Positions 34,431 through 60,190 are shown, numbered from the whole stretch's first letter. The stretch is DNA of 63,967 bases, filler included, from 10 parts of 10 records of this genome joined end to end with filler, not necessarily neighbours in it, one strand, 5' to 3'. Numbers and translations are program-made. The notes: a model not told the origin generated them from the sequence alone.

Positions 34431-34576
34431 CTGTACACGAAAGGCATGTTAAAGAAGAGCAAGCGAAGGATTAACAGCCACACAAAGAACAACACAAAAC
34501 CAGGAAAATAGAACAGAAACGGAGAGAACGAGAGAGAGGGGGGAAGATGTCCAACACCCGTCCAGGCGAAAGCACC

Positions 34577-34676
34577 NNNNNNNNNNNNNNNNNNNNNNNN
34601 NNNNNNNNNNNNNNNNNNNNTTAATTAATTAANNNNNNNNNNNNNNNNNNNNNNNNNNNNNNNNNNNNNNNNNNNN
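34577..34676. other. Artificial contig linker
   Basis: 44 N + TTAATTAATTAA + 44 N. Confidence 0.98.
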
Positions 34677-37600
34677 CCAACAGGTGCGGGGAAAACCACC
34701 CTGCTGGACGCCATTTGTCTGGCGCTGTATCACGAAACTCCGCGTCTCTCTAACGTTTCACAATCGCAAAATGATCTCATGACCCGCGATACCGCCGAAT
34801 GTCTGGCGGAGGTGGAGTTTGAAGTGAAAGGTGAAGCGTACCGTGCATTCTGGAGCCAGAATCGGGCGCGTAACCAACCCGACGGTAATTTGCAGGTGCC
34901 ACGCGTAGAGCTGGCGCGCTGCGCCGACGGCAAAATTCTCGCCGACAAAGTGAAAGATAAGCTGGAACTGACAGCGACGTTAACCGGGCTGGATTACGGG
35001 CGCTTCACCCGTTCGATGCTGCTTTCGCAGGGGCAATTTGCTGCCTTCCTGAATGCCAAACCCAAAGAACGCGCGGAATTGCTCGAGGAGTTAACCGGCA
35101 CTGAAATCTACGGGCAAATCTCGGCGATGGTTTTTGAGCAGCACAAATCGGCCCGCACAGAGCTGGAGAAGCTGCAAGCGCAGGCCAGCGGCGTCACGTT
35201 GCTCACGCCGGAACAAGTGCAATCGCTGACAGCGAGTTTGCAGGTACTTACTGACGAAGAAAAACAGTTAATTACCGCGCAGCAGCAAGAACAACAATCG
35301 CTAAACTGGTTAACGCGTCAGGACGAATTGCAGCAAGAAGCCAGCCGCCGTCAGCAGGCCTTGCAACAGGCGTTAGCCGAAGAAGAAAAAGCGCAACCTC
35401 AACTGGCGGCGCTTAGTCTGGCACAACCGGCACGAAATCTTCGTCCACACTGGGAACGCATCGCAGAACACAGCGCGGCGCTGGCGCATATTCGCCAGCA
35501 GATTGAAGAAGTAAATACTCGCTTACAGAGCACAATGGCGCTTCGCGCGAGCATTCGCCACCACGCGGCGAAGCAGTCAGCAGAATTACAGCAGCAGCAA
35601 CAAAGCCTGAATACCTGGTTACAGGAACACGACCGCTTCCGTCAGTGGAACAACGAACCGGCGGGTTGGCGTGCGCAGTTCTCCCAACAAACCAGCGATC
35701 GCGAGCATCTGCGGCAATGGCAGCAACAGTTAACCCATGCTGAGCAAAAACTTAATGCGCTTGCGGCGATCACGTTGACGTTAACCGCCGATGAAGTTGC
35801 TACCGCCCTGGCGCAACATGCTGAGCAACGCCCACTGCGTCAGCACCTGGTCGCGCTGCATGGACAGATTGTTCCCCAACAAAAACGTCTGGCGCAGTTA
35901 CAGGTCGCTATCCAGAATGTCACGCAAGAACAGACGCAACGTAACGCCGCACTTAACGAAATGCGCCAGCGTTATAAAGAAAAGACGCAGCAACTTGCCG
36001 ATGTGAAAACCATTTGCGAGCAGGAAGCGCGCATCAAAACGCTGGAAGCTCAACGTGCACAGTTACAGGCGGGTCAGCCTTGCCCACTTTGTGGTTCCAC
36101 CAGCCACCCGGCGGTCGAGGCGTATCAGGCGCTGGAGCCTGGCGTTAATCAGTCTCGATTACTGGCGCTGGAAAACGAAGTTAAAAAGCTCGGTGAAGAA
36201 GGTGCGACGCTACGTGGGCAACTGGACGCCATAACAAAGCAGCTTCAGCGTGATGAAAACGAAGCGCAAAGCCTCCGACAAGATGAGCAAGCACTTACTC
36301 AACAATGGCAAGCCGTCACGGCCAGCCTCAATATCACCTTGCAGCCACTGGACGATATTCAACCGTGGCTGGATGCACAAGATGAGCACGAACGCCAGCT
36401 GCGGTTACTCAGCCAACGGCATGAATTACAAGGGCAGATTGCCGCGCATAATCAGCAAATTATCCAGTATCAACAGCAAATTGAACAACGCCAGCAACTA
36501 CTTTTAACGACATTGACGGGTTATGCACTGACATTGCCACAGGAAGATGAAGAAGAGAGCTGGTTGGCGACACGTCAGCAAGAAGCGCAGAGCTGGCAGC
36601 AACGCCAGAACGAATTAACCGCGCTGCAAAACCGTATTCAGCAGCTGACGCCGATTCTGGAAACGTTGCCGCAAAGTGATGAACTCCCGCACTGCGAAGA
36701 AACTGTGGTATTGGAAAACTGGCGGCAGGTACATGAACAATGTCTCGCATTACACAGCCAGCAGCAGACGTTACAGCAACAGGATGTTCTGGCGGCGCAA
36801 AGTCTGCAAAAAGCCCAGGCGCAGTTTGACACCGCGCTACAGGCCAGCGTCTTTGACGATCAGCAGGCGTTCCTTGCGGCGCTAATGGATGAACAAACAC
36901 TAACGCAGCTGGAACAGCTCAAGCAGAATCTGGAAAACCAGCGCCGTCAGGCGCAAACTCTGGTCACTCAGACAGCAGAAACGCTGGCACAGCATCAACA
37001 ACACCGACCTGACGACGGGTTGGCTCTCACTGTGACGGTGGAGCAGATTCAGCAAGAGTTAGCGCAAACTCACCAAAAGTTGCGTGAAAACACCACGAGT
37101 CAAGGCGAGATTCGCCAGCAGCTGAAGCAGGATGCAGATAACCGTCAGCAACAACAAACCTTAATGCAGCAAATTGCTCAAATGACGCAGCAGGTTGAGG
37201 ACTGGGGATATCTGAATTCGCTAATAGGTTCCAAAGAGGGCGATAAATTCCGCAAGTTTGCCCAGGGGCTGACGCTGGATAATTTAGTCCATCTCGCTAA
37301 TCAGCAACTTACCCGGCTGCACGGGCGCTATCTGTTACAGCGCAAAGCCAGCGAGGCGCTGGAAGTCGAGGTTGTTGATACCTGGCAGGCAGATGCGGTA
37401 CGCGATACCCGTACCCTTTCCGGCGGCGAAAGTTTCCTCGTTAGTCTGGCGCTGGCGCTGGCGCTTTCGGATCTGGTCAGCCATAAAACACGTATTGACT
37501 CGCTGTTCCTTGATGAAGGTTTTGGCACGCTGGATAGCGAAACGCTGGATACCGCCCTTGATGCGCTGGATGCCCTGAACGCCAGTGGCAAAACCATCGG

Positions 37601-37712
37601 TGTGATTAGCCACGTAGAAGCGATGAAAGAGCGTATTCCGGTGCAGATCAAAGTGAAAAAGATCAACGGCCTGGGCTACAGCAAACTGGAAAGTACGTTT
37701 GCAGTGAAATAA
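34677..37712 (+). CDS. sbcC: SMC-like nuclease subunit SbcC, 5'-truncated
   Basis: Contig starts within Walker A (TGAGKTT); CPLC hook, [13 protein letters not shown]. Confidence 0.98.
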
Positions 37713-37837
37713 CTATTCAGCAGGATAATGAATACAGAGGGGCGAATTATCTCTTGGCCTTGCTGGTCGTTATCCTGCAAGCTATCACTTTATTGGCTAC
37801 GGTGATTGGTAGCCGTTCTGGTGGTTGTGATGGTGGT

Positions 37838-39022
37838 ATGAAAAAAGTCATTTTATCTTTGGCTCTGGGCACGTTTGGTTTGGGGATGGCCGAATTTGGC
37901 ATTATGGGCGTGCTCACGGAGCTGGCGCATAACGTAGGAATTTCGATTCCTGCCGCCGGGCATATGATCTCGTATTATGCACTGGGGGTGGTGGTCGGTG
38001 CGCCAATCATCGCACTCTTTTCCAGCCGCTACTCACTCAAACATATCTTGTTGTTTCTGGTGGCGTTGTGCGTCATTGGCAACGCCATGTTCACGCTCTC
38101 TTCGTCTTACCTGATGCTCGCCATTGGTCGGCTGGTATCCGGCTTTCCGCATGGCGCATTTTTTGGCGTCGGAGCGATCGTGTTATCAAAAATTATCAAA
38201 CCCGGAAAAGTCACCGCCGCCGTGGCGGGGATGGTTTCCGGGATGACAGTCGCCAATTTGCTGGGCATTCCGCTGGGAACGTATTTAAGTCAGGAATTTA
38301 GCTGGCGTTACACCTTTTTATTGATCGCTGTTTTTAATATTGCGGTGATGGCATCGGTCTATTTTTGGGTGCCAGATATTCGCGACGAGGCGAAAGGAAA
38401 TCTGCGCGAACAATTTCACTTTTTGCGCAGCCCGGCCCCGTGGTTAATTTTCGCCGCCACGATGTTTGGCAACGCAGGTGTGTTTGCCTGGTTCAGCTAC
38501 GTAAAGCCATACATGATGTTTATTTCCGGTTTTTCGGAAACGGCGATGACCTTTATTATGATGTTAGTTGGGCTAGGGATGGTGCTGGGAAATATGCTAA
38601 GTGGCAGGATTTCAGGACGTTATTCACCACTGCGCATTGCAGCAGTGACTGACTTTATAATTGTACTGGCACTGCTGATGCTCTTTTTCTGCGGCGGCAT
38701 GAAAACAACGTCGCTTATTTTTGCTTTTATTTGTTGCGCGGGATTATTTGCCCTTTCAGCACCGCTACAAATATTGTTACTACAAAACGCCAAAGGCGGA
38801 GAGTTATTAGGTGCCGCAGGTGGGCAAATAGCGTTTAACCTCGGTAGCGCCGTCGGCGCATATTGCGGAGGTATGATGCTGACGCTGGGGCTGGCATATA
38901 ATTACGTGGCGCTGCCTGCCGCCCTGCTTTCGTTTGCTGCGATGTCGTCGTTGCTGCTGTATGGTCGCTATAAGCGCCAGCAAGCGGCGGATACTCCGGT
39001 GCTGGCGAAACCACTGGGGTAG
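37838..39022 (+). CDS. araJ: MFS transporter AraJ
   Basis: MKKVILSLALGTF start, 394 aa, downstream of sbcC. Confidence 0.96.
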   Translation: MKKVILSLALGTFGLGMAEFGIMGVLTELAHNVGISIPAAGHMISYYALGVVVGAPIIALFSSRYSLKHILLFLVALCVIGNAMFTLSSSYLMLAIGRLVSGFPHGAFFGVGAIVLSKIIKPGKVTAAVAGMVSGMTVANLLGIPLGTYLSQEFSWRYTFLLIAVFNIAVMASVYFWVPDIRDEAKGNLREQFHFLRSPAPWLIFAATMFGNAGVFAWFSYVKPYMMFISGFSETAMTFIMMLVGLGMVLGNMLSGRISGRYSPLRIAAVTDFIIVLALLMLFFCGGMKTTSLIFAFICCAGLFALSAPLQILLLQNAKGGELLGAAGGQIAFNLGSAVGAYCGGMMLTLGLAYNYVALPAALLSFAAMSSLLLYGRYKRQQAADTPVLAKPLG

Positions 39023-39048
39023 GTTATAGTCTCGGTGCTCATTACTTA

Positions 39049-39075
39049 TTGCCGGATGCGGCGTGAACGCCTTAT
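39049..39075. repeat. REP at contig end
   Basis: GCCGGATGCGGCGTGAACGCCTTAT. Confidence 0.88.
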
Positions 39076-39175
39076 NNNNNNNNNNNNNNNNNNNNNNNNN
39101 NNNNNNNNNNNNNNNNNNNTTAATTAATTAANNNNNNNNNNNNNNNNNNNNNNNNNNNNNNNNNNNNNNNNNNNN
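39076..39175. other. Artificial contig linker
   Basis: 44 N + TTAATTAATTAA + 44 N. Confidence 0.98.
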
Positions 39176-39194
39176 TGTGTGTGTGTGTGTGTGT
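39176..39194. repeat. (TG)n microsatellite at eukaryotic contig start
   Basis: Pure TG run. Confidence 0.85.
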
Positions 39195-39784
39195 TTGTGT
39201 TGTGCACGCGCCTGTTGGGTGAAGACGCCAACTACTCAATCGTGTACGCGTTCGCAAGCTCAACATCTTCGACGCACACATCCTCTCGCACCTCATCCTC
39301 CGTCCTCGTGTTCTTTCTGCTCTCTACGTCTGCGTACATGTCTCACGAACGTGTGTGCGGTAGGTAATCTCATCGCATCCGTTTCTTGATGCCAACCACA
39401 CACCCACCCTCTGGCGGGCTCTGTACATTCCCTTCGTATCCGCTCACAAGGCCCGGTACCTCGACTACGTGTATTTGCGACGGAAAAATTTGTACGAATA
39501 ACGAGACCGAGCCAGAAACGCACGCCTGTCAAACATATATATAACAGTCATGCGCCAGTGTCGGTCCTTCTCATCGCATGATAATTACATACAACGTGAC
39601 AGCGCCCCAACGTAGCGACACGAAACAAAACCCGGAAACACATATCTATCGTCGCACGCAGCGCAAACCACACAGTCAACCGTAGCTTGTAGGACCAACA
39701 CAAACAGCGCTCGACGCCCTATACACTGACTGAATGGTCCCGCGAGCAGAACGAAGTAGGGACCGCTATTACAAGTCTCCGTGC

Positions 39785-41535
39785 TCAGATTGCCTTGGTG
39801 GACGTGACCTACGAAAGACGCAAATCAGCCTAGCTGGCAAGGTATAGCGAGTGTCTTTGAACCACACAACGCTGTGATGTACAGCGTACAGCACAGACCG
39901 CGTGCACCTGATGTGTGCTTCACCACACTCACTCACACAACATGTCGTTCTGTTACTTCCTTCCCACGCACGAAGACGCACTCAACGACACTACTTACCA
40001 CACTATGACGAGAATGGGCTCGACACAAAATAAAAGTGCGTGAGAGAAGGGACGTACCGTGCCGTCCTTCGCAGTGGACGTGAGCAACGCTTCGATGACA
40101 GCCACGTCACGCACTGCCTCAATGGGGGATAGTCCACGTGGATCGATTACAGACTCACCGGTTCGTAACAGATGCTGAGGAGGGTCTACCCGCAACAGAA
40201 GTGAACAAAACAGGGAGGTACGCAAAACTTAAAAACATTGTCACACGATTGAAAAAGCGCAAAGTCCCGTACGCAGGAAACCACATATGCAGTGGTACTA
40301 TTCTAGTGGTTAGAATCAGTTCTGCGGCGCACTACGGGGACCGAATGTTGCTATACACTGTACAGGGCAGAAGAACAAAACACCAAAAACAGAGAAGAGA
40401 GATGTCTGCATACACAAGAGGCACACACATACATGGATTATACGCTCAACAACAACACGCATCCACACACTCCCGCACCTTCGATGGGCTCTATGGTCAG
40501 CGCAGCGATGCCTGCCGAGGAGGGCATGACGCCGGGTGGCATCGGGTCTAGAGGCCGTCCTGCATATCATGTTCGTGAGATATGTGAGTGCGTGCGAGGA
40601 ACCTACCCACATAAAATTAGACAGATACACATAACCTGAACAAACAGAAACACACCCACACACACACACATACATAAATATATACCCGCAGTCGTTCAGA
40701 GGCATACCTCCACGCACAGCCGCGGCAAACGCTGCGAGCTCACGGGGCACACCAGCGAACGGATAAAACACACGCGCCATATGCTTGCAGGAGCTGGGAC
40801 GCACACCCACCCAATATCCTATTACACGGCGGATCAGCTGTGCAGAACACACGTACATACCCCGTCCTAATAACAACAAGAGGACATCCAAAACAACCAA
40901 GCATCCGCAACAGAAACTGTAGTGTCACGAACAGGGCGACAGGCACGGACAGAGTGAATCAACCACAACACCGCACATCAAGCTCTGTACAACGGCGTAC
41001 ACATGTCAAACACCACACGCCTTAGCAGAAACACAGCACGCGCCTGCACACGGACACAACGTACCATGGACGTGGTTGTCCTCGCCCCGCCACAGCTCCA
41101 CATATCCGTTCAAGCACACAACACTATACGCCGCAGTGAGCAACGCACATAAACATACACGCAAACACACACTCTCTCCGACACCTACACACAGAGAGAC
41201 AAGGAATCTTTCATAACCGAACCACTGTATACCATCTCCCCGCGGAAAACACCGCTCCTCCCGAACCTAAACTTCAACCACACAAACACAAAACAATATC
41301 GCCCACACATCCACGTATCACACCTCATCTTGAACTCACGCTGTGTGCCCACAAACGAGATGGTTACACTTGCTGCACTACCGTCCGACATCCAAACCAC
41401 CGCATTAACGGTATCCGGTGCGGGCAACGTGTGTGTGGTGGAGCGACCGTGTGCGGAGACGCGGGTGACCTCGCAGCCACACACCATACGCAGCGCCGCA
41501 ATGAAATGCACACCTCCGTCCAGAACGTATCCACC
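39785..41535 (-). CDS. Eukaryotic Gfo/Idh/MocA-family oxidoreductase, 5'-truncated; exons 41535-41324, 41123-41065, 40818-40708, 40559-40479, 40185-40058, last exon tentative (about 39808-39785)
   Basis: GGYVLDGGVHFIAALR family motif, ELAAFAAAVRG, and SPIEAVRDVAVIEALL C-terminal helix; intron phases consistent. Confidence 0.85.
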
Positions 41536-41626
41536 CTAGAGAGAAGGGGATGTGAGAATGTGTTACGAGGGAGAGAAAGAGAGTGTATGAGTGAGGGAGT
41601 GAATGCGGCATGATGAACAGCGAGGG

Positions 41627-41726
41627 NNNNNNNNNNNNNNNNNNNNNNNNNNNNNNNNNNNNNNNNNNNNTTAATTAATTAANNNNNNNNNNNNNNNNNN
41701 NNNNNNNNNNNNNNNNNNNNNNNNNN
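41627..41726. other. Artificial contig linker
   Basis: 44 N + TTAATTAATTAA + 44 N. Confidence 0.98.
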
Positions 41727-42616: not shown

Positions 42617-45600
42617 TCAGAACCGCGCGAGGAGGACAGCCAGTGCTGTTGCAACATACGCGATGGGTAACAGAAGCTTGCACAAGAACGATGCCGCATG
42701 GAGACGAGCAATCTAAGAAGAAACGATGAAGCACAAGCTCAGTATGAGAACACGCATGATAGAGAAGGAGAGGAGGGGTACCAGTGAATTGTAATAACAG
42801 TGATCACCATGCAAGTGCCTTCAGCACTGTTACGGACAGGAGACAACACCATCAACAACAACCACCACCACCACCACCACCGCAATCGCAACCAACCCAC
42901 GGGGCGCAACCCCACGTACCCAAACTTTGCGCCGTCTGGGGTCAATCATGGGCGTAATCTTCCCGCAGCACACCATCTCCGTGGGCTCGTCGCTGTCACT
43001 CGACTCGCCAGGAACCAGCTCAACCTTGCTGGGCTGCTGCGTCTGTGGCTGGGAGCCGCGTTCGTTCACACGAGGCCCGCTCGCAACACCTTCCGAGTGG
43101 TCGGTCTACAGAACCACATCAGCACAGCGCGGAGGGTGGGGAAGCGAGGTTGGATGAAAGGAAACGAAGGGCCAATGACAACAAACCACGGTGGGTTGTG
43201 CGGCGTATAACACACACACCATCCCCAGCATCAACACAAGGCATCACATACCCTAGCGTCCGCATCCGACTCGCGAGGCTGCAGGTACGCGGGCTGACTG
43301 GGGTCCGCACCGGACCCGGGTGCGTTCTGTCCGTGCAGCTTGTGGCCGTGTGGATGGGGGGTGCCCGTATCCGACACGGCTGAGGGGTACATCCCGCGCG
43401 CTCGCATACGTTCGGGGGGCAGCCCCTCCTCGGCAATGAGGGCGATCTGGATGATAGCACCCTGCACACACACGCCATGACAGCCGGTTCAGTGACAGAG
43501 AGAACAGCAAAAGAACACATGTGCTTGCGTTTGGTGTTCCCGCCGAGACAACACTCGATGCAACAAACGAAATGGATGAAGAGACACACACCCACGCTCG
43601 AACACAACCACACGCACACACACAAACTCACGCAACACAACAGATGCACAAAACCAACGACCCAGCGCACCTGTATGATGAGCATGAGGGTTACGAATGC
43701 ATAGGTGACCAGCAGCGCCACTGCCATGCGTGTGATATACGACACAGGCGGGGACAGGTTCACCAGCACAAACGTGAACGCCAGTGTTGCAGCCAACGAA
43801 GTCAGCGGGACCGTCAAGCGCTTGTCCGATCGCAACGCCACGAAGAAACTGAGGTAGGACGCTGCGAAGATGAGCACGAGCGGGATGAAGAACACGGCTA
43901 CGTTGTAGGTGAAGATGCGGTTGGCGTGCACGCGTGTGGTGAGGATGTGAAACCCGCCCAGCAGGCCCGCTGGCGGGACGACCGAGTGCTGCACAAGAGT
44001 CGGGAGATAAGGATAGCCGCACAACGAAAGCGTGGACACAACCCACCTGCCGTCACCCTCGTCATCAAAGAAGCGCGCCACAGAGCACGGCAACCCAAGT
44101 CGGAGCCGACAGCAGAGAGGTGCGTACCTGTGAGTACGAATCGAAGCTCCAGATGGCATCGTTCAGCGCGGCCACGTTGTTCGTCTGCTCGGTGTCGAAG
44201 GTGTTGAGCGCGAACACCACAAAGGACGAGTTGTAAAAGGCGGATCTCATCTGTGTTGATCAACGTTAGGCAATGAGGACAGACAGGTACAGGATGACAC
44301 AGAGCGAATAGGTTGTCGCACCTTAATGTCAAAATTCTGATCGTCGAACGGGAAGTTGCGGGCGTTGATGGGAGCTGCGAACTTGGTGATGTACCGATCC
44401 AGTCGCTAGGGTAAGTACCACACAGTTAGAGATATTGCAGCAAAGCAGTCACAATGCCCTCACAGTTGCGATCCGCAGAGACGAAACCCACAGTCCAGGC
44501 CACGCCCACACATGCAACACAAATACATGATCTTCCGCACAAACACATAAGCACACGCGTGTTGGCTCGCAGCCGTCAGTTCACAGGCACAAATGCACAC
44601 CTCAACCATGCCAGTCGGGTAGATGACCATACGCGACTCGAAAGGCTTTGGCTGATCCCGGTTGTTCACAAACGTGAGCCCAGGCGTCCACAACATCCGG
44701 CCCACAGATCTACAAAGCGCAGAAAATCCATAAATACACAGAAGTACACACACATCCACACTCAACCACCACGCGTGCACATGAGCACAGATATGAACAA
44801 TGCTGGAATGTACCATGAAGAACAAACAAATGTCAAACGCTAACGGCTTGTTGATACGTTACAGCACACCGGCGCATACCCCACCGCAGTCAGATTAGGC
44901 CCCAGACTCACAGCACCGTCACTGCCCGTGTTGGCGGACTCGAGGCGCGCGTCGTACCACATCTGCCGCAGAATGATGTCCGCATAGAACGTCTGCTGCT
45001 GCTCGTTGACCTCGTACAGACTCAGCACCTACCACGGCAACCACCATCGCAGTCAGCTCACAGCTGTGTATCAAATGTGGCGACGACAGAAGACTTGAGG
45101 AAGCAAGAACGTGCACTAAATCTCATCGTGCTGTGTCCGCATGCCTGTAACGTACCTGTGGTGTGACAGCCACCCGAACCACCGACGGGTTGTTTGTGGC
45201 CGCGTCGTAGGACCAGTTGCCGGGTATCACCGCGGCCGCACGTGTCTGTCCACCCGGTAGCTATGCAGACGCATAATGAGCAACCTGGTCAACGGCGCAC
45301 AGAACCACAGCAACGAAACGCACAGCTGGGGCAACAGGATCACGTCTCTCTTGTTACATAGCGCGCATCGAGGCGACATACCACACGGCCATCGTATCCA
45401 AGCGGGGGCATCTTGACACCCGCAGCGCGCACACTCAGACGGGAGCGACTGGCGAGACTGCTTGGGATGGCACCCACAGGGACTGCGGCGTCCGCTACAG
45501 CATCTGGTGGCAGGTGGCGGGACGCGCGAGGGTGAGAACAGAGAACAATCACCAATCATACGAAAGAAAAGGGCGCGAAGGAACGGACTATATTGACACG

Positions 45601-48007
45601 GCTTCGATAGATATTCGAAAGAGTTGGACAATAACGCTCCGCCGCATACGGCCATAGCACATCATTCAGGATCATGAGCAGTCCACAAAGACGTACAAGT
45701 CGCCTGATCGTAAATGTTTCCTCCGTTCAGTCTCAATGCGTTTCGCGAGGCAGCATCCAGCAGAGGTGCGTTCTCCCCTTGCCCCACCACGTATCGAAAC
45801 AGAATCTGGCGCTGGTCCACAGGGGAAGCATAGCCCAACAGGTACGCTCTGCAGAGGACCGAACAACCGCGATGAGGACATCAAGGTAGAGCTAATATGT
45901 GAGAAACAGTACAAGGTGATATGCGAGGACACGCCTCGGCTGACAGTCACCGCGTCACCGCACGTACTCCGCGCCCGAATTCAGCTCCAGACTGATCCGC
46001 AGGGCTGACATGGGCGCGCGCGGGGGCTCGGGGAACCCACTGCCCCCAATCTCCAGCCCGTCCCCGTTGGAGGCAGTTCCGCCCTGGTCCGAGGTGTGCT
46101 CGTCGCGAATCATGCCGTGTACGCCCGCACGCACCGGAGGAAAGCCTACAGCGGCGTAGTGACCGTGGGAGAGTTCGTTCGCGGCCCCGCCGCTGTCTGA
46201 ACCAGGCGTCCCCACTATACACATAGCAAACGTTAGTGAATAGGGTATTCACACCGCAAGAACCAAACAAAGTCGCAGAGTTTGCCACGTACCAAGAACA
46301 GGGGCGCCGCTGCCATCGGGCAGGATGAACGCCACCGGGCGTGAGAAAGTCACCACAATGTCGATCACGTTACCCGTGGAGTAGTTCCCATTGGGGGAGC
46401 TGGCAAACACGTTGGTGATGCTGGGGCCGCCCGTTCGCACAGAAACAGTCGGGCTGAGTGTGACGGCGCGAAGCGACGCCGGTGTAACAAAGGGCACACA
46501 GGTCATCGCCCGTTCCTTTGGCGTGAGCACGGTACCAAAATCGGCTTGCGGCGCATGCTCACCCACCACCATCGTGTGAACGAAAACCAGTGAGTTGGCC
46601 GGTGCCGGGGGTTCCACCACCCCATCCCGTGTGTACGACGCGAACGCGTTAAACTCCGAGCGGTTGAACAGGCGAGCGGTCGACAGGACACTGCCGGGGC
46701 GGAGGTTGAGATAGAGGACGGGATCGCAGGGCAGCTGGGTGTCGACCACATCCGCATCGAAGAACGCAATGATGTACATGACGGTGCTGACACCAAGCAC
46801 GTCGCCGTCAGAAACGCCCCAGATCTGCATGTCGGTCAGGTTCACCGGTGTTTGCACACCAACTGCCGTCCAGTGCGCATCGAAGCCAGGTGCCTCGTTG
46901 ACCGTGGACAGAATAATGAGCGCATGTGGGCCCGGGACAGAAATAGAGCCAGGAAGAGAGGCAGATGTGAGGGTGTGCAGCGTGTGCAGCTCGTTGCCCA
47001 CCACATGGCTGACGGTGATCTGCAGCAAGGTGCGCCACCAACACAACGTCGACAGGAGTCAGACAGCATTTCAAACGACCCATACACACATAGTCATTTG
47101 TCACACGGCCCGTGACTGCGACGTACCGAATCACCCGGTGCGAGCCCGAGTGTATTGAACGTGATCAGCGTGTCAGACTGAGTGCCCACGTCGATGTCCC
47201 AGCTGCACACCACGTTGGGGGGCACGGGGAACGGCGCAAATCCTGGGTGGAACTGCCCGCTGGTGCCACGAAGGAGGGCCTGCCCACAGCCTGCAGCGGA
47301 GAACAGCAGTCAACGCATAATTCCACATGACGAAGACCGATATAGGGCATGTGATAGTGTGTCGGTGGTGTGTTGGGAGGACTTTGCCAATGGTTGAACA
47401 CTGCAAGATGTGCGGACGAGTCAGAGCACCATACCGTGCATGTATCGGAACGTGACTGCCGAACTGATTTCATGCCCATCCACGGTGCGCAACGTTACAG
47501 CACCCGACGCAGGCTGGGACACAGGGCTGAGAAGGGCTGTGATTTTTACCGGCGTCTGTGCAACGATCCGCGCCGGTGTGCCTGCAACCAGCACATCCGC
47601 TACCCGATCTAGCACAAAAAAACAGAAACCAGATCAGGAAAAAGGCAGCCAACAACAATACGAGGCTTGGAAAACCCGCACACAGATCAAACAACACGGT
47701 CAAGTTGGAAACGTATACGGCCCTGTGGGAGAACGCACCTGCTCCCAGGTTATGACCCGTGACGGTCAAGAGTGTGCCACCTCGCAGCGTCGAAAACAGC
47801 GGCGTGACAGCCTCAATGCAGCCTACAGCAGCCGTCGTGGGTGAGCCGTTCAGACAGACACACATCTCACACGTACACTTGACTTCAGAACGGCCATGTA
47901 ATTGAGACGAACGAACAGACACCTCCGGCGAAATACACAACACAACACGTACTGCATGTGTAGTGGATGTACTGCACCGCCGAGGCTGCATTGCTGCACG
48001 CGTCCAA
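42617..48007 (-). CDS. Cys-less pentameric ligand-gated ion channel subunit with N-terminal IPT/TIG, CUB and Ig-like domains, 5'-truncated; exons 48007-47953, 47822-47739, 47608-47435, 47290-47127, 47019-46293, 46214-45968, 45848-45697, 45503-45382, 45260-45156, 45028-44880, 44709-44601, 44405-44322, 44250-44128, 43988-43671, 43461-43252, 43105-42920, 42712-42617
   Basis: 16 GT-AG introns give one 3105-nt open frame; pLGIC motifs FYADIILRQMWYDARL, LWTPGLTFVN, NFPFDDQ, pre-M1 Arg, M1 Pro, PPVSY, and four TM helices. Confidence 0.88.
42853..42880. repeat. (CAA)/(CAC)n microsatellite inside an intron
   Basis: caacaacaaccaccaccaccaccaccac within intron 42713-42919. Confidence 0.75.
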
Positions 48008-48049: not shown

Positions 48050-48149
48050 NNNNNNNNNNNNNNNNNNNNNNNNNNNNNNNNNNNNNNNNNNNNTTAATTA
48101 ATTAANNNNNNNNNNNNNNNNNNNNNNNNNNNNNNNNNNNNNNNNNNNN
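48050..48149. other. Artificial contig linker
   Basis: 44 N + TTAATTAATTAA + 44 N. Confidence 0.98.
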
Positions 48150-48196
48150 ATTAAAAAAATTAATGTGTTTCAGTCAATTGCGAAAGGATGATCACA

Positions 48197-48850
48197 ATGA
48201 AGAAAATTGGCGTAATTCTGAGCGGATGCGGCGTCTATGACGGTTCTGAAATTCATGAAGCGGTGTTGACGTTGTTAGCTATTTCACGCAGCGGTGCGCA
48301 GGCGGTCTGCTTTGCACCGGATAAGCAGCAGGTTGATGTTATCAACCATTTAACTGGCGAAGCGATGACGGAAACGCGCAATGTGCTGATTGAAGCGGCA
48401 CGAATAACGCGCGGTGAAATCCGTCCTCTGGCCCAGGCCGATGCCGCTGAACTGGATGCGTTGATTGTGCCGGGGGGGTTTGGCGCGGCGAAGAATTTAA
48501 GCAATTTTGCCAGTCTTGGTAGCGAATGCACCGTTGACCGTGAATTAAAGGCGCTGGCACAAGCGATGCATCAGGCCGGAAAACCGCTTGGTTTTATGTG
48601 TATTGCCCCGGCGATGCTGCCGAAAATTTTCGATTTCCCGCTGCGTTTGACCATCGGTACTGATATCGATACCGCAGAAGTGCTGGAAGAGATGGGCGCG
48701 GAGCATGTGCCGTGTCCTGTCGATGATATCGTGGTTGATGAAGACAATAAGATTGTCACCACCCCAGCATATATGCTGGCGCAGAACATTGCAGAAGCGG
48801 CGAGCGGCATTGATAAGCTGGTTTCCCGCGTGCTGGTTCTGGCTGAATGA
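48197..48850 (+). CDS. elbB: Glyoxalase ElbB
   Basis: [23 protein letters not shown]. Confidence 0.96.
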
Positions 48851-49575
48851 GTAAAAGCCGCTTAACGGTGTTTAGTTTCGTTCGCCGTTTTCTTTTGCGG
48901 TTAATGGTTGTCCTCGCCGTTTTCTGGGGCGGGGGCATCGCGTTGTTTAGCGTTGCGCCTGTTCCCTTCTCAGCGGTAATGGTCGAGCGACAGGTCAGCG
49001 CCTGGCTGCATGGCAATTTTCGTTACGTGGCACATTCTGACTGGGTCAGTATGGATCAAATCTCGCCGTGGATGGGACTGGCGGTGATTGCCGCAGAAGA
49101 TCAGAAATTTCCTGAGCACTGGGGCTTTGATGTCGCTTCCATTGAGAAAGCCCTGGCGCACAACGAGCGCAATGAAAACCGTATTCGCGGTGCTTCAACG
49201 ATTTCTCAACAGACAGCCAAAAATCTCTTTTTATGGGATGGGCGTAGCTGGGTTCGAAAAGGGCTGGAAGCCGGATTAACGCTGGGGATAGAAACGGTCT
49301 GGAGCAAAAAGCGTATCCTGACGGTTTACCTGAATATCGCCGAATTTGGCGACGGTGTGTTTGGCGTCGAAGCTGCGGCACAACGTTATTTCCACAAACC
49401 CGCGAGCAAACTTACCCGGTCGGAAGCTGCATTACTGGCAGCTGTATTACCTAATCCACTTCGTTTCAAAGTCTCCTCGCCATCGGGCTACGTGCGTAGC
49501 CGTCAGGCGTGGATTTTACGGCAGATGTATCAGTTAGGCGGTGAGCCGTTTATGCAACAACACCAGCTGGATTAA
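48847..49575 (+). CDS. mtgA: Monofunctional peptidoglycan glycosyltransferase
   Basis: AEDQKF and [12 protein letters not shown] motifs. Confidence 0.98.
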
Positions 49576-50204
49576 GCTTCGCGCGAAGTGAGGGCCAGCG
49601 TTTTGCTCTCACGAGGTTGCAGATCTTTCTGCAGGGCAATAGCCAGCGCCGGTTGGGCGATAAATCGTTTCCATAACCGCTCTTGCTTACGCAGACAACA
49701 CCACTTCGACCAGGTCGCCAGTGGAATCAATGTGCTTTCACCAATGTTGTCGCAGACGACCGGGATAACCTCTGACTCACTGATGCGGTGACAGAGGATA
49801 TTCTGCGGCTTCAGCGACATCGTCACGATACGGTTATCCTGCAAATAACGCTTCAGCTGTTTCAGTAGCTGGCGCAGTTGTGCAATGTCTTCTTCGTAAC
49901 GGCATTGTTCAGCAAATTCGGTCAGCGTAATGGAAGGCTTGCCGTCAAAATCTGCAATCACATCGTAGACATAACCGGTTCCGCAATCCGTCTCAACGGT
50001 ACCGTGATAGCGCGGTATTCCACTCCAGTCTTTTAACCGGCGACCAAGATGCGCGTAGTACTTTAACTCACGGCGGATCTCTTTATCGCCACCATCGCCA
50101 CGATGGTAGACAATCTTGATACAGCGTTGGGCATCTTCCGGATGCGCATAACATTTCCGATGTCTTCCGGTGCCCAGGGGACTTTGTTCAGATAAGCGAA
50201 TCAT
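49572..50204 (-). CDS. yrbL: PhoP-regulated kinase-like protein YrbL
   Basis: [16 protein letters not shown], 210 aa. Confidence 0.93.
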
Positions 50205-50254
50205 GCCATCTCCTGGAAATATTTTCTGACGATCTCCAGTATGGTCGATTAACT

Positions 50255-50271
50255 TAAACAAAACCTAAACA
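50255..50271 (-). promoter_or_regulatory. PhoP box upstream of yrbL
   Basis: TGTTTA-N5-TGTTTA direct repeat on the minus strand. Confidence 0.85.
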
Positions 50272-50277
50272 ATGCCT

Positions 50278-50294
50278 CTTAAGGTTTTCTTAAG
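50278..50294. promoter_or_regulatory. BasR/PmrA box upstream of yrbL
   Basis: CTTAAG-N5-CTTAAG direct repeat. Confidence 0.75.
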
Positions 50295-50417
50295 GTTCTT
50301 CTGAAAGTGAAAAGCGCACAAAATGTACAAATGACGTTGATTGAGAACGATTTCAGTACGTGATTTTCTTATTGTCGGGGGGAGTTTGAAGGGAGTTGTA
50401 TGTCAAAGTGATGAAGA

Positions 50418-50690
50418 TTAATCTTCATCAAAACCAGAATTAAAGAGGGCGATAACGGCGGCCAGTGCTTCCTCTTCCTGTGGACCGGTCGCTTCAACTT
50501 CAATCTGCCGTCCTTTGGCAGAATCCAACATCAGCAGCGCAATAACGCTGTTGGCTTCAGCCTCGGTGCCTTCGTCATTACGTAAGAGCACTTCAGCGTC
50601 AAAACCCTGCATTAATTCAAACAGCTTCATTGCAGGCCGGGCATGCATGCCCAGCTTGTTTGTGATTTCAACAGTTTGCTTGACGGTCAT
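50418..50690 (-). CDS. npr: Phosphocarrier protein NPr
   Basis: GMHARPA HPr motif. Confidence 0.97.
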
Positions 50691-51541
50691 GGTTTACGTT
50701 TTTCCAGCGTACGATGGCGTGACTGGACGTTTTTACCGCGCGAGCGGAAGTAGTCTGCCAGTTGCTCTGCAATATACACCGAACGGTGCTTCCCGCCGGT
50801 ACAACCAATGGCGACCGTCAAGTAGCTACGGTTGTTGGTTTCCAGCATAGGTAACCATAGCTCAAGATAGCTTCGCGTCTGGTAGATAAAATTGTGTACT
50901 TCTGTGTGGCGGTCGAGGAACGCGGCGACAGGTTTATCAAGACCTGTCATTGGACGCAGTTTCGGATCCCAGTGCGGGTTCGGCAAGAAGCGCACGTCAA
51001 AGACGTAATCTGCATCGATAGGGATACCGTGTTTGAAGCCGAAAGACTCAAAGACCATGGTCAGTTCGCGTTCACGTTTACCCAGCAGACGGGTACGCAG
51101 CATTTCAGCCAGCTCGTGAACGGACATTTCTGAGGTATCGACAATCAGATCCGCTCGCGAACGCAGAGGCTCCAGCAAATCGCTTTCTTTGTCGATAGCA
51201 CTTTCCAGCGACAGGTTTTTGCTGGAAAGCGGATGCAGTCGGCGCGTGTCACTGTAACGACGAATTAAGGTATTACGGTCGGCATCCAGGAACAGGAGTT
51301 GCGGTGAGAAAGCGTCAGGCAGGTTACTCATCGCCTGTTCGAATATTTCTGGTGACTCCGGCATATTACGAACATCAATGCTGACGGCGGCAGAAATCTC
51401 GCGATCGGCCAGGGTTCGAGCCAGATCGGGTAACAACACTACGGGAAGGTTATCCACGCAGTAAAAACCCATATCTTCCAGCGCACGCAGGGCGACAGAT
51501 TTACCTGAACCTGAACGTCCGCTGACGATCATCAGTACCAT
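50687..51541 (-). CDS. rapZ: RNase adaptor RapZ
   Basis: [18 protein letters not shown]. Confidence 0.98.
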
Positions 51542-51586
51542 GTACTGTTTCTCCTCACAACGTCTAAAAGAGACATTACCGAATAA

Positions 51587-52078
51587 CTACGCTTCATCCG
51601 GAGTACCTTCGGTATCCGTAATGATTTGATACAGCTCTTCATCGCTCTGGGCTGCGCGTAAACGGCGGCAGATGGTTTTGTCCGCCAGACGTTTCGCCAC
51701 CAGCGACAGAGTATGCAGGTGCGTTTTAGTTTGGTCTGCCGGCACCAGCAGGGCAAAAAGTAAGTCCACCGGTTGGTTGTCGATGGCATCGAAAGCTATA
51801 GGCGTTTCGAGCTGAACGAAAACGCCAACGGCGCGCAGAGTATCTTCTTCCAGTTTGCCATGCGGAATGGCAATACCATTGCCGATACCGGTACTGCCCA
51901 TTTTTTCCCGCGTCAGGATAGCTTCAAAAACCACCTGAGGCGGCAGGCTAAGTTGTTTCGCCGCCAGCTCGCTGATGATTTCCAGGGCGCGTTTTTTGCT
52001 CTGACAGTGGACGCGGCTTCGCGTACATTCCCTGTTAAGAACACTGCTAAGCTGTAGAGTTGTATCATTATTTGTCAT
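51587..52078 (-). CDS. ptsN: PTS IIA(Ntr)
   Basis: GSTGIGNGIAIPHG. Confidence 0.98.
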   Translation of the reverse strand: MTNNDTTLQLSSVLNRECTRSRVHCQSKKRALEIISELAAKQLSLPPQVVFEAILTREKMGSTGIGNGIAIPHGKLEEDTLRAVGVFVQLETPIAFDAIDNQPVDLLFALLVPADQTKTHLHTLSLVAKRLADKTICRRLRAAQSDEELYQIITDTEGTPDEA

Positions 52079-52195
52079 AATTTCACCTAAGAACCTGCCC
52101 ACTCAAACAGTGGAACAGGCTCGGAGCATTAACCGTACAAATGGCCCGTTGTGCCGCACAACAGACCGCCATGCACATGCTAATTGCCCGGACAA

Positions 52196-52483
52196 TTAGT
52201 GTTGTTTCAGTTTATCTTTATGTTTGGTCAACTGGCGTGCCAGCTTATCAATTAAGCCATCAATGGCAGCGTACATGTCCTGACCTTCCGCGCTGGCATG
52301 AATTTCACCACCGTTTACATGCAGTGTTGCATCTGAGGTGTGGGTGACTTTCTCCACTTTCAGAACAACATAGACCTGGTTGATTCGGTCAAAATATTGC
52401 TCAAGTTTGGCAAATTTGGCTGTAACAAATTCGCGCAGTGCCTCGGTGATCTCGACGTTATTTCCGGTAATGTTGAGCTGCAT
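52196..52483 (-). CDS. hpf: Ribosome hibernation promoting factor
   Basis: MQLNITGNNVEIT, DMYAAID. Confidence 0.97.
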   Translation of the reverse strand: MQLNITGNNVEITEALREFVTAKFAKLEQYFDRINQVYVVLKVEKVTHTSDATLHVNGGEIHASAEGQDMYAAIDGLIDKLARQLTKHKDKLKQH

Positions 52484-52505
52484 AGTGTCTTCCTTATCGG
52501 TTGGG

Positions 52506-53939
52506 TCAAACGAGTTGTTTACGCTGGTTTGACGGCGGAATGGATAAAGACTCTCGGTACTTCGCAACAGTGCGGCGTGCCACCATGATACCTTGTTCCG
52601 ACAGCAAAGAGGTTAACTTGCTGTCGCTCAACGGTTTCGCTGGGTTTTCCGCCGCGATTAATTTCTTCACCAGCGCACGAATCGCCGTGGAGGAAGCTTC
52701 GCCGCCGCCCTCGGTATTGACGTGACTGGAAAAGAAATACTTCAGTTCAAAAATGCCTCGTGGACTATGCAGGTATTTTTGCGTGGTCACGCGAGATATC
52801 GTCGATTCATGCATTTCGACAGCCTGGGCGATATCGGCCAGTACCATCGGTTTCATATATTCTTCACCTTGCTCAAAGAAGGCTTGCTGCTGTTCAACGA
52901 TACAGCGACTCACGCGCAGTAGCGTATCGTTACGGCTTTCCAGACTCTTGATCAACCATTTGGCATCCTGCAGATTGCTGCGGATAAACTGGCTGTCACC
53001 ATCGTTGCGCGCGTTATTGCACATCGAGGCGTAGTGCTGGTTGATTTGCAGACGCGGAATGCTGTCACTGTTGAGTTCTACCGTCCAGTGACCGTTATGC
53101 TTACGCACCAGCACATCTGGAATGACATACTCAGGTTCGCCAGTCTGGATCGACTGCCCGGGGCGCGGATCGAGCGACTGGATCAGATTGACGGCTTCTT
53201 TCAGCACATCTTCTTTCAGACGCGTGACGCGCATTAAAGTGCGGAAGTCGTGATTGGCTAACAGATCGAGATGATCGCTAATGATCAGTCTGGCCTCTTC
53301 CAGCCACGGCGTGGTCTTATCGAATTGGGAGAGTTGGATCAGCAGACAGTCACGCAGATCTTTTGCCGCCACACCGACCGGATCAAACCGTTGGATCCGC
53401 TTAAGGACGGCTTCAACTTCGTCGATGTCGATCTCTTCATCGCCTATACTTTCGAGAATATCTTCCAGCGGGACAGTCAGATAACCGGTTTCATCAACGG
53501 CATCGACGATAGAGGTAGCAATAGCGCGGTCAGTGTCGGAAAACGGTGTCAGCTCAACCTGCCACATCAGGTAATCCTGCAAGGTCTGCGTCGTTTCGCC
53601 CTGGTAGACCGGCAGCTCGTCGTCAATGTAGTCACCGCTGGTGCCGGATGGTGTACCAGCGGTGTAAATGGTGTCCCAACTGGCATCGAGCGGCAGCTCT
53701 TCCGGCATCTCTTTTTGTTCGAGCGCGTCGGCGGTGTCCAGCGTTTCACTGTCTTGCGTTTCGCGGGTGTCGATTTCTTCATGAGTGTCGATTTGCTCAA
53801 GCAGCGGATTACTCTCCAGCGCCTGCTGTAGCTCCTGCTGAAGTTCCAGCGTCGACAACTGCAACAGACGAATTGCCTGTTGGAGCTGTGGCGTCATCGC
53901 CAGTTGTTGGCTAAGCCTGAGTTGCAAACCTTGCTTCAT
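52506..53939 (-). CDS. rpoN: RNA polymerase sigma-54
   Basis: RpoN box [10 protein letters not shown]. Confidence 0.99.
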
Positions 53940-53986
53940 GTTCAGAATCGTACTCTCCTGCTAAAACGTCGCAAACTTCTACCCTA

Positions 53987-54712
53987 TCAGAGTCTGAAGT
54001 CTTCCCCAAGGTATACACGCTTAACGTGTTCGTCTTGTAAGATTTCTGTAGGCGTGCCGTGGGCGATCAAATGCCCCTGACTGACGATATAAGCGCGTTC
54101 ACAAACCGCCAGTGTTTCACGCACGTTGTGGTCAGTGATCAGCACGCCCAGGCCGCTGTCGCGCAGGTGCTCAATGATGCGTTTAATGTCGATAACCGAG
54201 ATCGGGTCAACCCCGGCAAACGGTTCGTCGAGCAGAATAAATTTCGGATTCGCAGCCAGTGCGCGGGCAATTTCTACACGGCGACGTTCACCCCCGGAGA
54301 GTGACTGCCCCATGCTGTCACGCAGGTGCTCAATGTGAAACTCTTCCATCAGCTCGTTCGCGCGGTCTTCACGTTGTTCAGCAGACAAGTCGTCACGAAT
54401 TTGCAGTACCGCCATCAGGTTATCGTAAACGCTGAGGCGACGGAAAATGGAGGCTTCCTGTGGCAGATAGCCGATACCGCGGCGCGCGCGTGCATGCAGA
54501 GGCAGCAGACTGATATCGTCATCATCAATAATGATGTTGCCCGCATCGCGCGGCACAATGCCTACAACCATGTAGAAAGTGGTGGTCTTACCGGCACCGT
54601 TTGGCCCCAGCAGACCGACAATTTCCCCGGAGTTGACGGTCAGGCTGACGTCTTCTACCACGCGACGGCCTTTATAGGCTTTTGCAAGGTTCTTTGCAGT
54701 TAATGTTGCCAT
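53987..54712 (-). CDS. lptB: LPS export ATPase
   Basis: [17 protein letters not shown]. Confidence 0.98.
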
Positions 54713-54718
54713 AACGAA

Positions 54719-55276
54719 TTAATTACCCTTCTTCTGTGCCGGGGTCTGGCCTTTGTTGTTTTTGTCCTGCAGCTGCGACGGCACCAGAACGGTTGTTACG
54801 CGCTTGCCTTTGTCGCTGAAAGCCTGCATTTTCTGCTCTTTCACCAGGTAAGTGATCTTATCGCCCTTAATGTTGCTATCGACCTGCTGCAGATAAGCAT
54901 TACCCGTCAGAACGACAAAATCTTTTGCCAGTTCGTAGTGCATCTGGGAAGCGTGACCTTCAACGGGTTTACCGTTGTCCTGCATCTGGTAGAACGTTGC
55001 CGGTTTACCGTAGCCGTCAATCACTTCTTTACCTTGTTCGCCGCCCGGACGGGTAACGACCACTTTGTCGGCATTAATTTTGATGGTGCCCTGGGTGACG
55101 ATGACATTACCGGTAAAGGTAACCACGTTGCCTTGCATATCAAGAGATTGCTGGTCCGATTCAATGTGGATCGGCTGATCAGTGTCTCCGGTTACGGCAA
55201 ATGCCGGAATGCTGGCGGCCAGAAGTGAGCTGGCAAGCACAAGATTAAGGCTGAGTTTGTTTGTTTTGAATTTCAT
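54719..55276 (-). CDS. lptA: LPS transport periplasmic protein
   Basis: MKFKTNKL signal peptide, OstA-like. Confidence 0.97.
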   Translation of the reverse strand: MKFKTNKLSLNLVLASSLLAASIPAFAVTGDTDQPIHIESDQQSLDMQGNVVTFTGNVIVTQGTIKINADKVVVTRPGGEQGKEVIDGYGKPATFYQMQDNGKPVEGHASQMHYELAKDFVVLTGNAYLQQVDSNIKGDKITYLVKEQKMQAFSDKGKRVTTVLVPSQLQDKNNKGQTPAQKKGN

Positions 55277-55820
55277 AGGATGTTCTAACCTTTTCAATCA
55301 GCTCGGCGTTCTTGCTGCGTAAGTTGCCGCGCATTTTCAGACCGCTGGAGTTAAATGTTGTTCCGTATAACGTGACGAGGTCTTCAGAGGTAACATCCTG
55401 CGTCACCAGATTGATCTGCGCGTTATCCGTCGTGATTCTGCGAAGTTGAGAGTCTGGCACAAGTGCGTTGACTTCAACGTGTCCATATAAATAGAGCATC
55501 CGGTCATTGGTCAGCTTGGCTTTATCTGCTTTTACGGACCATGTCGGGATTTTATCCTTATCAAACGTGGTAAGTACCGGCTGCGTAAACCACGAAACGG
55601 CCTGATCGGAATAATATTCAACGTGTTGAGCAATCAATCGATAGCTTAGTGCCCCTTCTGGGTTATAGACGAGCGTGTCCGTATGCTCGCTTTTATAGGT
55701 GGGATCATTGTTGTTGACGACCACCTGGGCGGTATCGTCTTTTTCGGCCATATTAATGCCGATCATCACCAGAACCGCCAGTGATAGCACAATGATAACC
55801 CAACGTCTGGCTTTACTCAT
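55245..55820 (-). CDS. lptC: LPS export protein LptC
   Basis: Single N-terminal TM, 191 aa, operon position. Confidence 0.97.
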   Translation of the reverse strand: MSKARRWVIIVLSLAVLVMIGINMAEKDDTAQVVVNNNDPTYKSEHTDTLVYNPEGALSYRLIAQHVEYYSDQAVSWFTQPVLTTFDKDKIPTWSVKADKAKLTNDRMLYLYGHVEVNALVPDSQLRRITTDNAQINLVTQDVTSEDLVTLYGTTFNSSGLKMRGNLRSKNAELIEKVRTSYEIQNKQTQP

Positions 55821-56383: not shown

Positions 56384-56403
56384 TGTTGTTTATCCTTGAA
56401 TCT

Positions 56404-57390: not shown

Positions 57391-57403
57391 AATGCGTTTC
57401 CAG

Positions 57404-58590: not shown

Positions 58591-60190
<1,600 letters not shown>

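Follow-up and report, generated by a model that had tools for sequence, protein, structure and literature searches.

The window analysed here is a stretch of 63,967 bases in which ten unrelated contigs are joined by spacers, and its subject is a minus-strand gene of the contig at 41727-48049, which is 6,323 bases long. The gene, which ends with a stop codon at 42619-42617, is predicted to encode a subunit of a pentameric ligand-gated ion channel (pLGIC) preceded by a long extracellular extension. From the N-terminus, the predicted protein consists of a probable IPT/TIG and a probable CUB-like region, two Ig-like beta-sandwich modules (here named A and B), a linker, and a cysteine-free channel with an extracellular domain (ECD) and four membrane helices, M1-M4. 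We put the probability that the locus encodes a pLGIC with such an extension, as a single gene, at roughly 0.8.

Gene structure and channel core

The gene was rebuilt by scripts from the minus-strand sequence, which gave 16 exons and 15 introns and a frame of 1017 codons free of internal stops. All introns are of the GT-AG type and 71-209 nt long (130, 144, 107, 78, 119, 193, 136, 127, 170, 195, 71, 139, 209, 146, and 207 nt, from 5' to 3'); each of the 15 donors conforms to GT-R-Y-G (mostly GTACGT, GTGCGT, or GTATGT) and each of the 15 acceptors to YAG. Because the splice sites were chosen partly by this pattern, it is supportive and not fully independent evidence. The GC content is 0.61 in the exons, with 0.56-0.85 at third codon positions (GC3), and 0.52 in the introns. 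A naive gene model, obtained by dynamic programming for the greatest open length, yielded junk exons and was discarded.

An earlier note on this DNA had described 17 exons and 16 introns joined into one frame of 1034 aa. Its intron size range and its exon boundaries at 45503 and 44880 were reproduced, whereas the seventeenth exon, the sixteenth intron, and the total of 1034 aa could not be fixed. The candidate for this 5'-most exon (47953-48007), an uncertain feature encoding a cysteine-containing stub, begins right after an AG (48009-48008) and a stop in its frame and is followed by a GTACGT donor at 47952. Several donor/acceptor pairs would keep the frame, with protein totals of 1001-1054 aa; an upstream exon from 48007 is plausible, with an intron that cannot be fixed. 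Since the model has no start codon or signal peptide and the acceptor lies 41 nt from the contig end, the gene likely continues 5' beyond position 48049, a weaker form of what the earlier note had stated as fact.

Pfam and structural searches were run exon by exon on contiguous translations, and the spliced model was used only in script alignments. Four homologs not used for the gene model (P0001, P0028, P0005, and P0032) were compared with the contig by tblastn and gave colinear minus-strand high-scoring segment pairs (HSPs) on exons 4, 6, 7, 9, 10, 11, 12, and 13. For P0001, the E-values were 2e-14 (exon 4), 8.6e-8 (exon 6), 1.6 (exon 7), 9e-5 (exon 9), 1.9e-5 (exon 10), 3.7e-8 (exon 11), and 2e-22 (exon 13), with exon 12 covered by a linked HSP. 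The spliced model aligns with the same protein at E=6e-75 (model residues 465-1005) and E=2.8e-13 (195-389), and single blastp HSPs extend from module A to M3 in P0005 (model 208-836), P0032 (140-866), and P0029 (209-899), likewise in P0018 and P0014 (from ~140-220 to ~836-899). The junctions that connect the extension with the channel (6/7, 7/8, and 8/9) fall in gap-free conserved alignment columns; at junction 9/10 the model is 8 residues longer than the homologs, and this junction is slightly less certain. The prediction of a single gene is supported by both the homologs and the exon structure. No Pfam match was obtained for exons 5-8, 12, and 14-16, nor for the candidate first exon or the stretch read as the second half of CUB. 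The plus-strand open reading frames (ORFs) across the locus belong to no family, the only match (GAGE, E=0.042) being regarded as noise.

The channel begins in exon 8 (45156-45245), to which the alignment assigns the linker and the first ECD strand in 30 aa that have no Pfam match alone. The remainder of the ECD is encoded by exons 9 (44880-45028), 10 (44601-44709), 11 (44322-44405), and 12 (44128-44250). The first three of these match the Neur_chan_LBD profile in colinear order, at profile positions 36-64 of 216 (E=8.1e-4, 19.3 bits), 81-114 (E=0.073, 12.9 bits), and 119-140 (E=0.034, 14.0 bits); each piece stays under the 26-bit cut-off because the pieces are fragments. The tblastn matches include one of P0028 to exon 10 (E=1.5e-7), and that of P0001 to exon 11 has 59% identity; exon 12, the end of the ECD, is placed by the HSP linked with exon 11 and by alignment. 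Exon 13 (43671-43988) encodes pre-M1, M1, the pore helix M2, and M3. It matches Neur_chan_memb at positions 2-75 (E=0.064) and, in the PDB, ELIC-type chains at E=6e-5, with which its M2 aligns without gaps; a HMMER search of 1.84 billion representatives with this exon returned 59 proteins at E<=1e-3. Exon 14 (43252-43461, GC3 0.76) covers a low-complexity part of the intracellular M3-M4 loop, which is long and variable in the homologs as well; exon 15 (42920-43105) carries the loop to a pre-M4 segment conserved in the alignment; and exon 16 (42617-42712) encodes M4, which aligns with M4 of P0001, P0018, and P0014, and the stop. Hydrophobic segments at model residues 770-802, 806-826, 832-868, and 992-1017 fit M1-M4, with a loop of ~125 aa between M3 and M4.

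The homologs carry the same domains: Neur_chan_LBD scores above its curated cut-off in 18 of the 21 homologs scanned (72.8 bits in P0001), P0055 lies just under it, and in P0047 and P0053 the membrane domain alone is seen. A profile built from 37 family members (alignment A2) matched in the PDB 6fl9, which we take to be sTeLIC, at 5e-63, ELIC (2vl0) at 7e-58, DeCLIC (6v4a) at 4.6e-57, and glycine receptors and GLIC at ~1e-47. Word-index protein searches gave no match for exon 13 at longer protein lengths and seven for the A2 profile, none of them with extra domains. The AlphaFold2 (AF2) model of P0001 has a mean predicted local distance difference test score (pLDDT) of 78 and exceeds 90 over the ECD and M1-M3; it matched GABA-A and GlyR chains at E ~1e-22 with target-normalised TM-scores of 0.70-0.74, and DeCLIC chains at similar E with TM ~0.4.

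The signature loop in exon 11 reads F-P-F-D, of which P and D are nearly invariant in alignment A2, and the disulfide-forming cysteine pair that would flank it is absent. No cysteine occurs between model residues 322 and 969, hence none in the ECD, which places the protein with the Cys-less forms and not with the strict (animal) Cys-loop receptors. On this strong evidence, the channel part belongs to the cysteine-free ('Pro-loop') pLGICs. A complete, Cys-less pLGIC with M1-M4 had been claimed before, and the profile fragments, the ELIC-type match, and the P0001 alignment bear this out; the four peptide strings quoted in its favour are all present in the exon translations. The six N-glycosylation sequons that had been offered as fitting an extracellular location are also present, together with a seventh in the M2-M3 loop, but shuffled sequences contain 6.0 +/- 2.2; since the count equals the shuffled expectation, the argument was rejected.

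In the ELIC alignment, the pore residues are Thr 2', Thr 6', Ala 9', Ala 13', Phe 16', and Asn 20', and M2 is preceded by D-K-R. According to the part of Tasneem et al. (PMC549065) used here, E-[RK] marks cation channels and A-[RK] anion channels; D-K-R fits neither cleanly. In seven of nine aligned rows, the conserved Arg at the cytoplasmic end of M2 has an Asp two positions ahead of it, and this acidic residue may lean weakly toward cation permeation.

Modules A and B in a protist channel family

The middle of exon 4 (46441-46848) encodes module A (model residues ~205-340), as delimited by homolog alignment and the AF2 model, and its end (46293-46440) the start of module B (~341-545), likewise placed by homolog alignment. 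Exon 5 (45968-46214, GC3 0.77) contributes a ~75-aa low-complexity loop within module B and a conserved strand before exon 6; its exact boundaries have no homolog support, and P0005, P0029, and P0032 have a variable insert at the same place. The core of module B lies in exon 6 (45697-45848), which shares 46% identity with P0001 in tblastn. Exon 7 (45382-45503), the bridge between extension and channel, encodes the end of module B and the linker to a conserved P-P-x-x-Y-D motif; its tblastn matches are weak (the better one E=0.019, to P0028), and the homolog alignment runs gap-free over both of its junctions.

Both modules are conserved in the homologs, and module A aligns with the N-termini of P0001, P0028, P0005, P0029, P0018, P0014, and P0032. 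AF2 with a 12-row alignment of exon 4 predicted module A as a beta-sandwich with a block pLDDT of 79-96, and the model of P0001 has beta-sandwiches at 25-141 and 181-290 followed by a disordered linker at 301-387. Foldseek comparison of module A with the PDB gave weak Ig-like matches (nanobodies and the C-terminal domain of sulfite oxidase), and no DeCLIC chain was among the best 50 matches listed. In hhalign, modules A and B matched each other with 95.7% probability over 29 columns. The protein-language-model look-alikes of both modules (scores 0.92-0.94), which serve as leads only, are clusters with Big_5 or Big_12 in 11-24% of their members and clusters of SbsA and SWM_repeat; by Pfam profile, modules A and B match none of these four families. 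The term 'Ig-like repeats' used in the earlier note is supported as a fair generic label for two related beta-sandwich modules without a Pfam family. An acidic motif, F-D-x-D/A-x-x-D, follows the first long strand of module A (46700-46790, minus strand) and is common to most homologs; a role in binding Ca2+ or another metal is conceivable.

Proteins with modules A and B come from several sources. P0001 is a complete ORF of 806 aa from a transcript of Colponema vietnamica, and P0030 one of 748 aa from an MMETSP transcript, so that in relatives of this gene modules A/B and the channel are carried by one mRNA. P0029, P0005, and P0018 are metagenome proteins, and P0002, P0003, P0006, P0026, and P0032 are gene models of Cyanophora paradoxa, 1019-2611 aa long. 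Among the latter, P0006 (2611 aa), P0026 (1785 aa), and P0003/P0032 (~1240 aa) have N-terminal extensions of 735-2137 aa in which Pfam has no match at E<=0.01; from the alignment, the extra length appears to consist of stacked A/B-like repeats. The other homologs are proteins from metagenomes or run assemblies, one of them titled 'gamma-aminobutyric acid receptor subunit beta'.

In a maximum-likelihood tree of the channel core (32 rows with >=230 aligned residues, drawn from the 59 matches and the model), a split with 100/99 support separates a group of 22 rows, comprising the window protein and all proteins with an N-terminal domain made of modules A/B, from 10 rows that are mostly ~330-aa proteins without an extension. 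Modules A/B together with the channel define a conserved unannotated family represented in Colponema, Cyanophora, an MMETSP transcript, and metagenomes. The gene is not a stand-alone oddity and belongs to this unannotated family of N-terminally extended eukaryotic pLGICs.

This also qualifies the view, expressed in the earlier note, that the architecture had not been described. Proteins with modules A/B and a channel are present in public sets, but their N-terminal part is unannotated, and no paper on an N-terminal extension of a eukaryotic pLGIC was found among the 12-15 full-text matches listed at the top of each search, supplements lying outside the search. Members of the family could already be contained in the supplementary sequence lists of Jaiteh et al.

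The N-terminal region, rival explanations, and contig setting

The region upstream of module A is encoded by exons 1-3 and the start of exon 4. Exon 1 (47739-47841), whose 5' boundary is not fixed (possible acceptors at 47883 or 47823), encodes the start of the probable IPT/TIG region and matches Pfam TIG (PF01833) at E=4.5e-4 over profile positions 2-26 of 84. In a phmmer search of the PDB, all nine of its matches were plexin or MET IPT regions (best E=2.6e-5). Exon 2 (47435-47608), separated from it by the 130-nt GT-AG intron, would encode the rest of the IPT/TIG-like beta-sandwich and has no meaningful PDB match. Exon 3 (47127-47290) encodes the N-terminal half of the probable CUB-like domain, with matches to Pfam CUB (PF00431; E=0.013, profile 1-48 of 110) and to PDB chains, namely the CUB starts of procollagen C-endopeptidase enhancer (E=7.6e-4) and the enteropeptidase heavy chain (E ~0.045), and it contains the first CUB cysteine pair (model C94 and C121). 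The first ~57 codons of exon 4 (46849-47019), judged by eye and from their position, would supply the second half of this domain; AF2 predicts strands there with a pLDDT below 50 and has low confidence over the first 56 residues. No PSI-type domain was found by Pfam upstream of the TIG region. Of the earlier reading as IPT/TIG, CUB, and Ig-like modules, the Ig-like modules hold, while TIG and CUB are recognised by their N-terminal halves only; both labels, which come from half-domain matches, are probable. Neither domain was seen in any of the 21 homologs scanned, and the addition of TIG and CUB appears to be this gene's own variation within the family.

Several observations weigh against reading the locus as one gene for an extended pLGIC with these modules. 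The N-terminus is missing from the contig, and the splice junctions are predictions, above all those between exons 1, 2, 3, and 4, which lack homolog support. The TIG match, at 20.6 bits against a cut-off of 20.9, covers the first half only, and the second half (exon 2) matches only Big_3_5 (E=0.0094). The CUB match, at 16.2 bits against 21.4, is likewise limited to the first half; the putative C-terminal half has no Pfam or PDB match, and the second cysteine pair is absent. Modules A/B gave no Pfam match in exons 4, 5, and 6 or in the N-termini of the 21 homologs, and the best Foldseek E-value for module A was 2.4e-3, with none at or below 1e-3. In the pore, position 9' is Ala in place of the usual Leu, with Leu at 8', a pattern shared by several homologs that might reflect an unusual gate or a register shift of one residue.

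The observations on the N-terminus bear on two alternatives. The gene could be real and its TIG and CUB labels wrong, the N-terminal 200 aa being more divergent Ig-like or beta-sandwich modules like A and B. The sub-threshold half-domain scores, the lack of a match in the CUB C-terminal half, and the similarity of exon 2 to a bacterial Ig family instead of TIG would all agree with this, as would the lengthening of the Cyanophora homologs by repeats of A/B-like modules. Yet the TIG assignment comes from two independent libraries (Pfam, and nine of nine PDB matches to plexin or MET IPT), and the CUB assignment from Pfam and from PDB CUB starts that include the first cysteine pair, so that we regard mislabelling as improbable. 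The other alternative is that splice-site choice has joined two adjacent genes, one for a secreted or adhesion protein with TIG and CUB and one for a separate channel that starts at module A. In four homologs (P0001, P0028, P0030, and P0029) the protein opens with Met and a signal peptide immediately ahead of module A, at the very point where the frame of this gene continues upstream; this, the absence of TIG and CUB from all homologs, and the unsupported junctions of exons 1-4 speak for two genes. Against them, exon 4 itself holds 57 open codons ahead of module A, among which no Met leads into a hydrophobic signal sequence. These codons begin at a YAG acceptor whose phase agrees with that of the N-terminal half of CUB, matched in both Pfam and the PDB, one 107-nt intron upstream, even if the label of the C-terminal half itself was given by position and by eye. 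That TIG and CUB are part of the channel gene is best supported by this open frame shared with module A in exon 4, and no in-frame stop interrupts the model; two genes are accordingly a rather remote prospect, less probable than mislabelled domains.

Least probable of all, and by our estimate a very small chance, is that the locus has no function, being a pseudogene or a chimera of the assembly. The contig is short, comes from a mixed assembly, and lacks the N-terminus of the protein. However, 1017 stop-free codons are maintained over 15 introns, every exon shows the GC3 bias, and the family-invariant residues are conserved; with the putative CUB C-terminal half and module A in one exon, a chimera cannot explain their association. 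One gene encoding a pLGIC with an N-terminal extension therefore remains the preferred reading.

The contigs of the window are separated by spacers of the form N44-TTAATTAATTAA-N44, at 11175-11274, 18160-18259, 23843-23942, 29918-30017, 32345-32444, 34577-34676, 39076-39175, 41627-41726, and 48050-48149, and genes on either side of a spacer are consequently not genomic neighbours. The right-hand contig (from 48150), with rapZ, mtgA, elbB, and ptsN, is 100% identical to E. coli chromosomes; such identity extends over 48150-52150 and over 1-11174, and window positions 1-24900 match E. coli at four places per genome with up to 100% identity. The segments 24901-29917 (recJ-like ORFs), 34677-39075 (sbcC-like ORFs), and 52151-63967 were assigned by ORF content only. 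Partly by identity and partly by ORF content, the contigs in 1-29917, 34677-39075, and 48150-63967 are those of E. coli. By contrast, the contig of the channel gene matched none of 5,426 E. coli genomes. Because of the E. coli identity of the other contigs, the eukaryotic ones represent a second organism in one assembly, and so the channel gene comes from a eukaryote co-assembled with E. coli. Rfam gave no match in the whole window, hence no rRNA; an exact 40-mer search of genome contigs gave none either, and with exon 4 as a protein query against metagenome contigs, 127 patterns matched and none was confirmed. In practice, a eukaryotic contig can be hidden in an E. coli-rich assembly.

Three short contigs (30018-32344, 32445-34576, and 39176-41626) have a non-bacterial appearance, with few long ORFs and GT/CA-rich low-complexity sequence, and may derive from the same organism as the channel gene. 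The first of them contains a 417-aa Ser/Ala/Arg-rich low-complexity ORF (30048-31301, plus strand). An ORF fragment at 41185-41535 (minus strand) resembles the C-terminal part of Gfo/Idh/MocA-type dehydrogenases, with two matches at 42-49% identity that carry PF01408, PF22725, and PF02894. The tight GT-R-Y-G/YAG intron pattern of the channel gene (42713-47738) could help to recognise other genes of this organism and perhaps its lineage.

Proposed role and comparison with known systems

We propose that one 5'-truncated nuclear gene of an intron-rich protist encodes a cysteine-free pLGIC subunit. Its extracellular extension of at least 580 aa would comprise the cysteine-containing stub, the IPT/TIG and CUB-like regions, Ig-like modules A and B of bacterial type, and a flexible linker, followed by a canonical ECD, M1-M3, the intracellular loop of ~125 aa, and M4. 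The extension is expected to be extracellular because no transmembrane segment precedes M1. As in the rest of the family, five subunits would form a pentamer with M2 lining the pore, and the five N-terminal arms would presumably stand above the ECD in the manner of the DeCLIC N-terminal lobes. By binding extracellular proteins, glycans, or Ca2+, the arms could tune gating, or else tether or cluster the channel, with the primary agonist, ion, or pH site kept in the ECD as in ELIC-type channels and DeCLIC. That the extension acts directly on gating rather than serving purely as an anchor has a somewhat less than even chance.

Gating by surface contact, glycans, or mechanical load, as the earlier note suggested, is speculation. 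A bolder proposal, which we consider unlikely, is that of an old and widespread eukaryotic pLGIC lineage, present in alveolates, glaucophytes, and other protists, in which adhesion-type modules bind prey, mate, substrate, or matrix and signal this to the gate. If true, this would be a pLGIC gated by contact or by macromolecules. It would also give eukaryotes their first counterpart to the N-terminal regulation of DeCLIC and would realise in one polypeptide the principle of CUB auxiliary proteins at animal synapses. In the parts of the literature consulted (PMC12664993 and PMC549065), eukaryotic pLGICs are treated as a fixed layout of ECD and four helices and accessory domains at the N-terminus as a curiosity of prokaryotes. 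In this gene and its relatives, the channel domain of some protists is preceded by 300 to more than 2000 residues of beta-sandwich modules, and here only, recognisable IPT and CUB modules are added. Should the extension control gating or positioning, the family would offer a eukaryotic model for accessory-domain regulation in a drug-target family, a clue to the role of pLGICs in cells without nervous systems, and, for family databases, a defined pair of domains (A and B) that still lacks a name.

The closest relatives of the gene are the A/B-family homologs of the same clade, which align with it colinearly for ~800 aa with 25-35% identity and E-values as low as 6e-75 and share modules A/B, the P-P-x-x-Y-D linker, the cysteine-free ECD, M1-M4, and the long intracellular loop. 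They differ in that a signal peptide or, in Cyanophora, extra A/B-like repeats replace CUB and TIG; the window gene also has the ~75-aa low-complexity insert in module B.

A possible functional parallel is offered by auxiliary proteins with CUB domains that serve ligand-gated channels, namely LEV-10 for acetylcholine receptors of nematodes and NETO and SOL-1 for glutamate receptors. In these, an extracellular CUB domain acts on a ligand-gated channel, by clustering or gating, whereas they are separate polypeptides and the CUB-like domain here would be part of the subunit itself. With respect to the core, the closest solved structures by profile are the ELIC-type channels (2vl0, 2yn6, and 6hjx) and 6fl9 (E=5e-63 to 7e-58), which are Cys-less like the window protein and, in contrast to it, prokaryotic and without an N-terminal extension or a long M3-M4 loop.

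DeCLIC (6v4a) resembles the predicted protein in having a pLGIC core after a large N-terminal domain with two beta-rich lobes per subunit, and it provides a conceptual model for the modulation of gating by an extension. A 2025 paper (PMC12664993), in the part drawn on here, presents DeCLIC as the only pLGIC with a structurally characterised N-terminal domain and treats such domains as prokaryotic. DeCLIC is bacterial, its lobes are jelly-rolls, and it lacks TIG, CUB, and the long intracellular loop; whole-chain superposition with the P0001 model gave TM-scores of 0.40-0.41 and root-mean-square deviations of 33-34. Neither the Foldseek search with module A nor this superposition revealed homology of the extension to the jelly-rolls NTD1/NTD2 of DeCLIC, and at most it would work like DeCLIC.

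The 'Pro-loop' receptors of Jaiteh et al. 2016 (PMC4795631) are, like the protein predicted here, Cys-less pLGICs of unicellular eukaryotes, and the portion of that study used here places them in protists including Alveolata. Its authors state that they discarded sequence outside the two signature domains, so it does not describe the extension. In the systems reported in 2004 in PMC549065, again as far as the cited part goes, additional sensory domains sit between signal peptide and channel ECD, a principle in common with the window gene; those are prokaryotic small-molecule-binding domains, whereas the modules predicted here, IPT, CUB, and Ig-like, are of adhesion or protein-interaction types and occur in a eukaryote.

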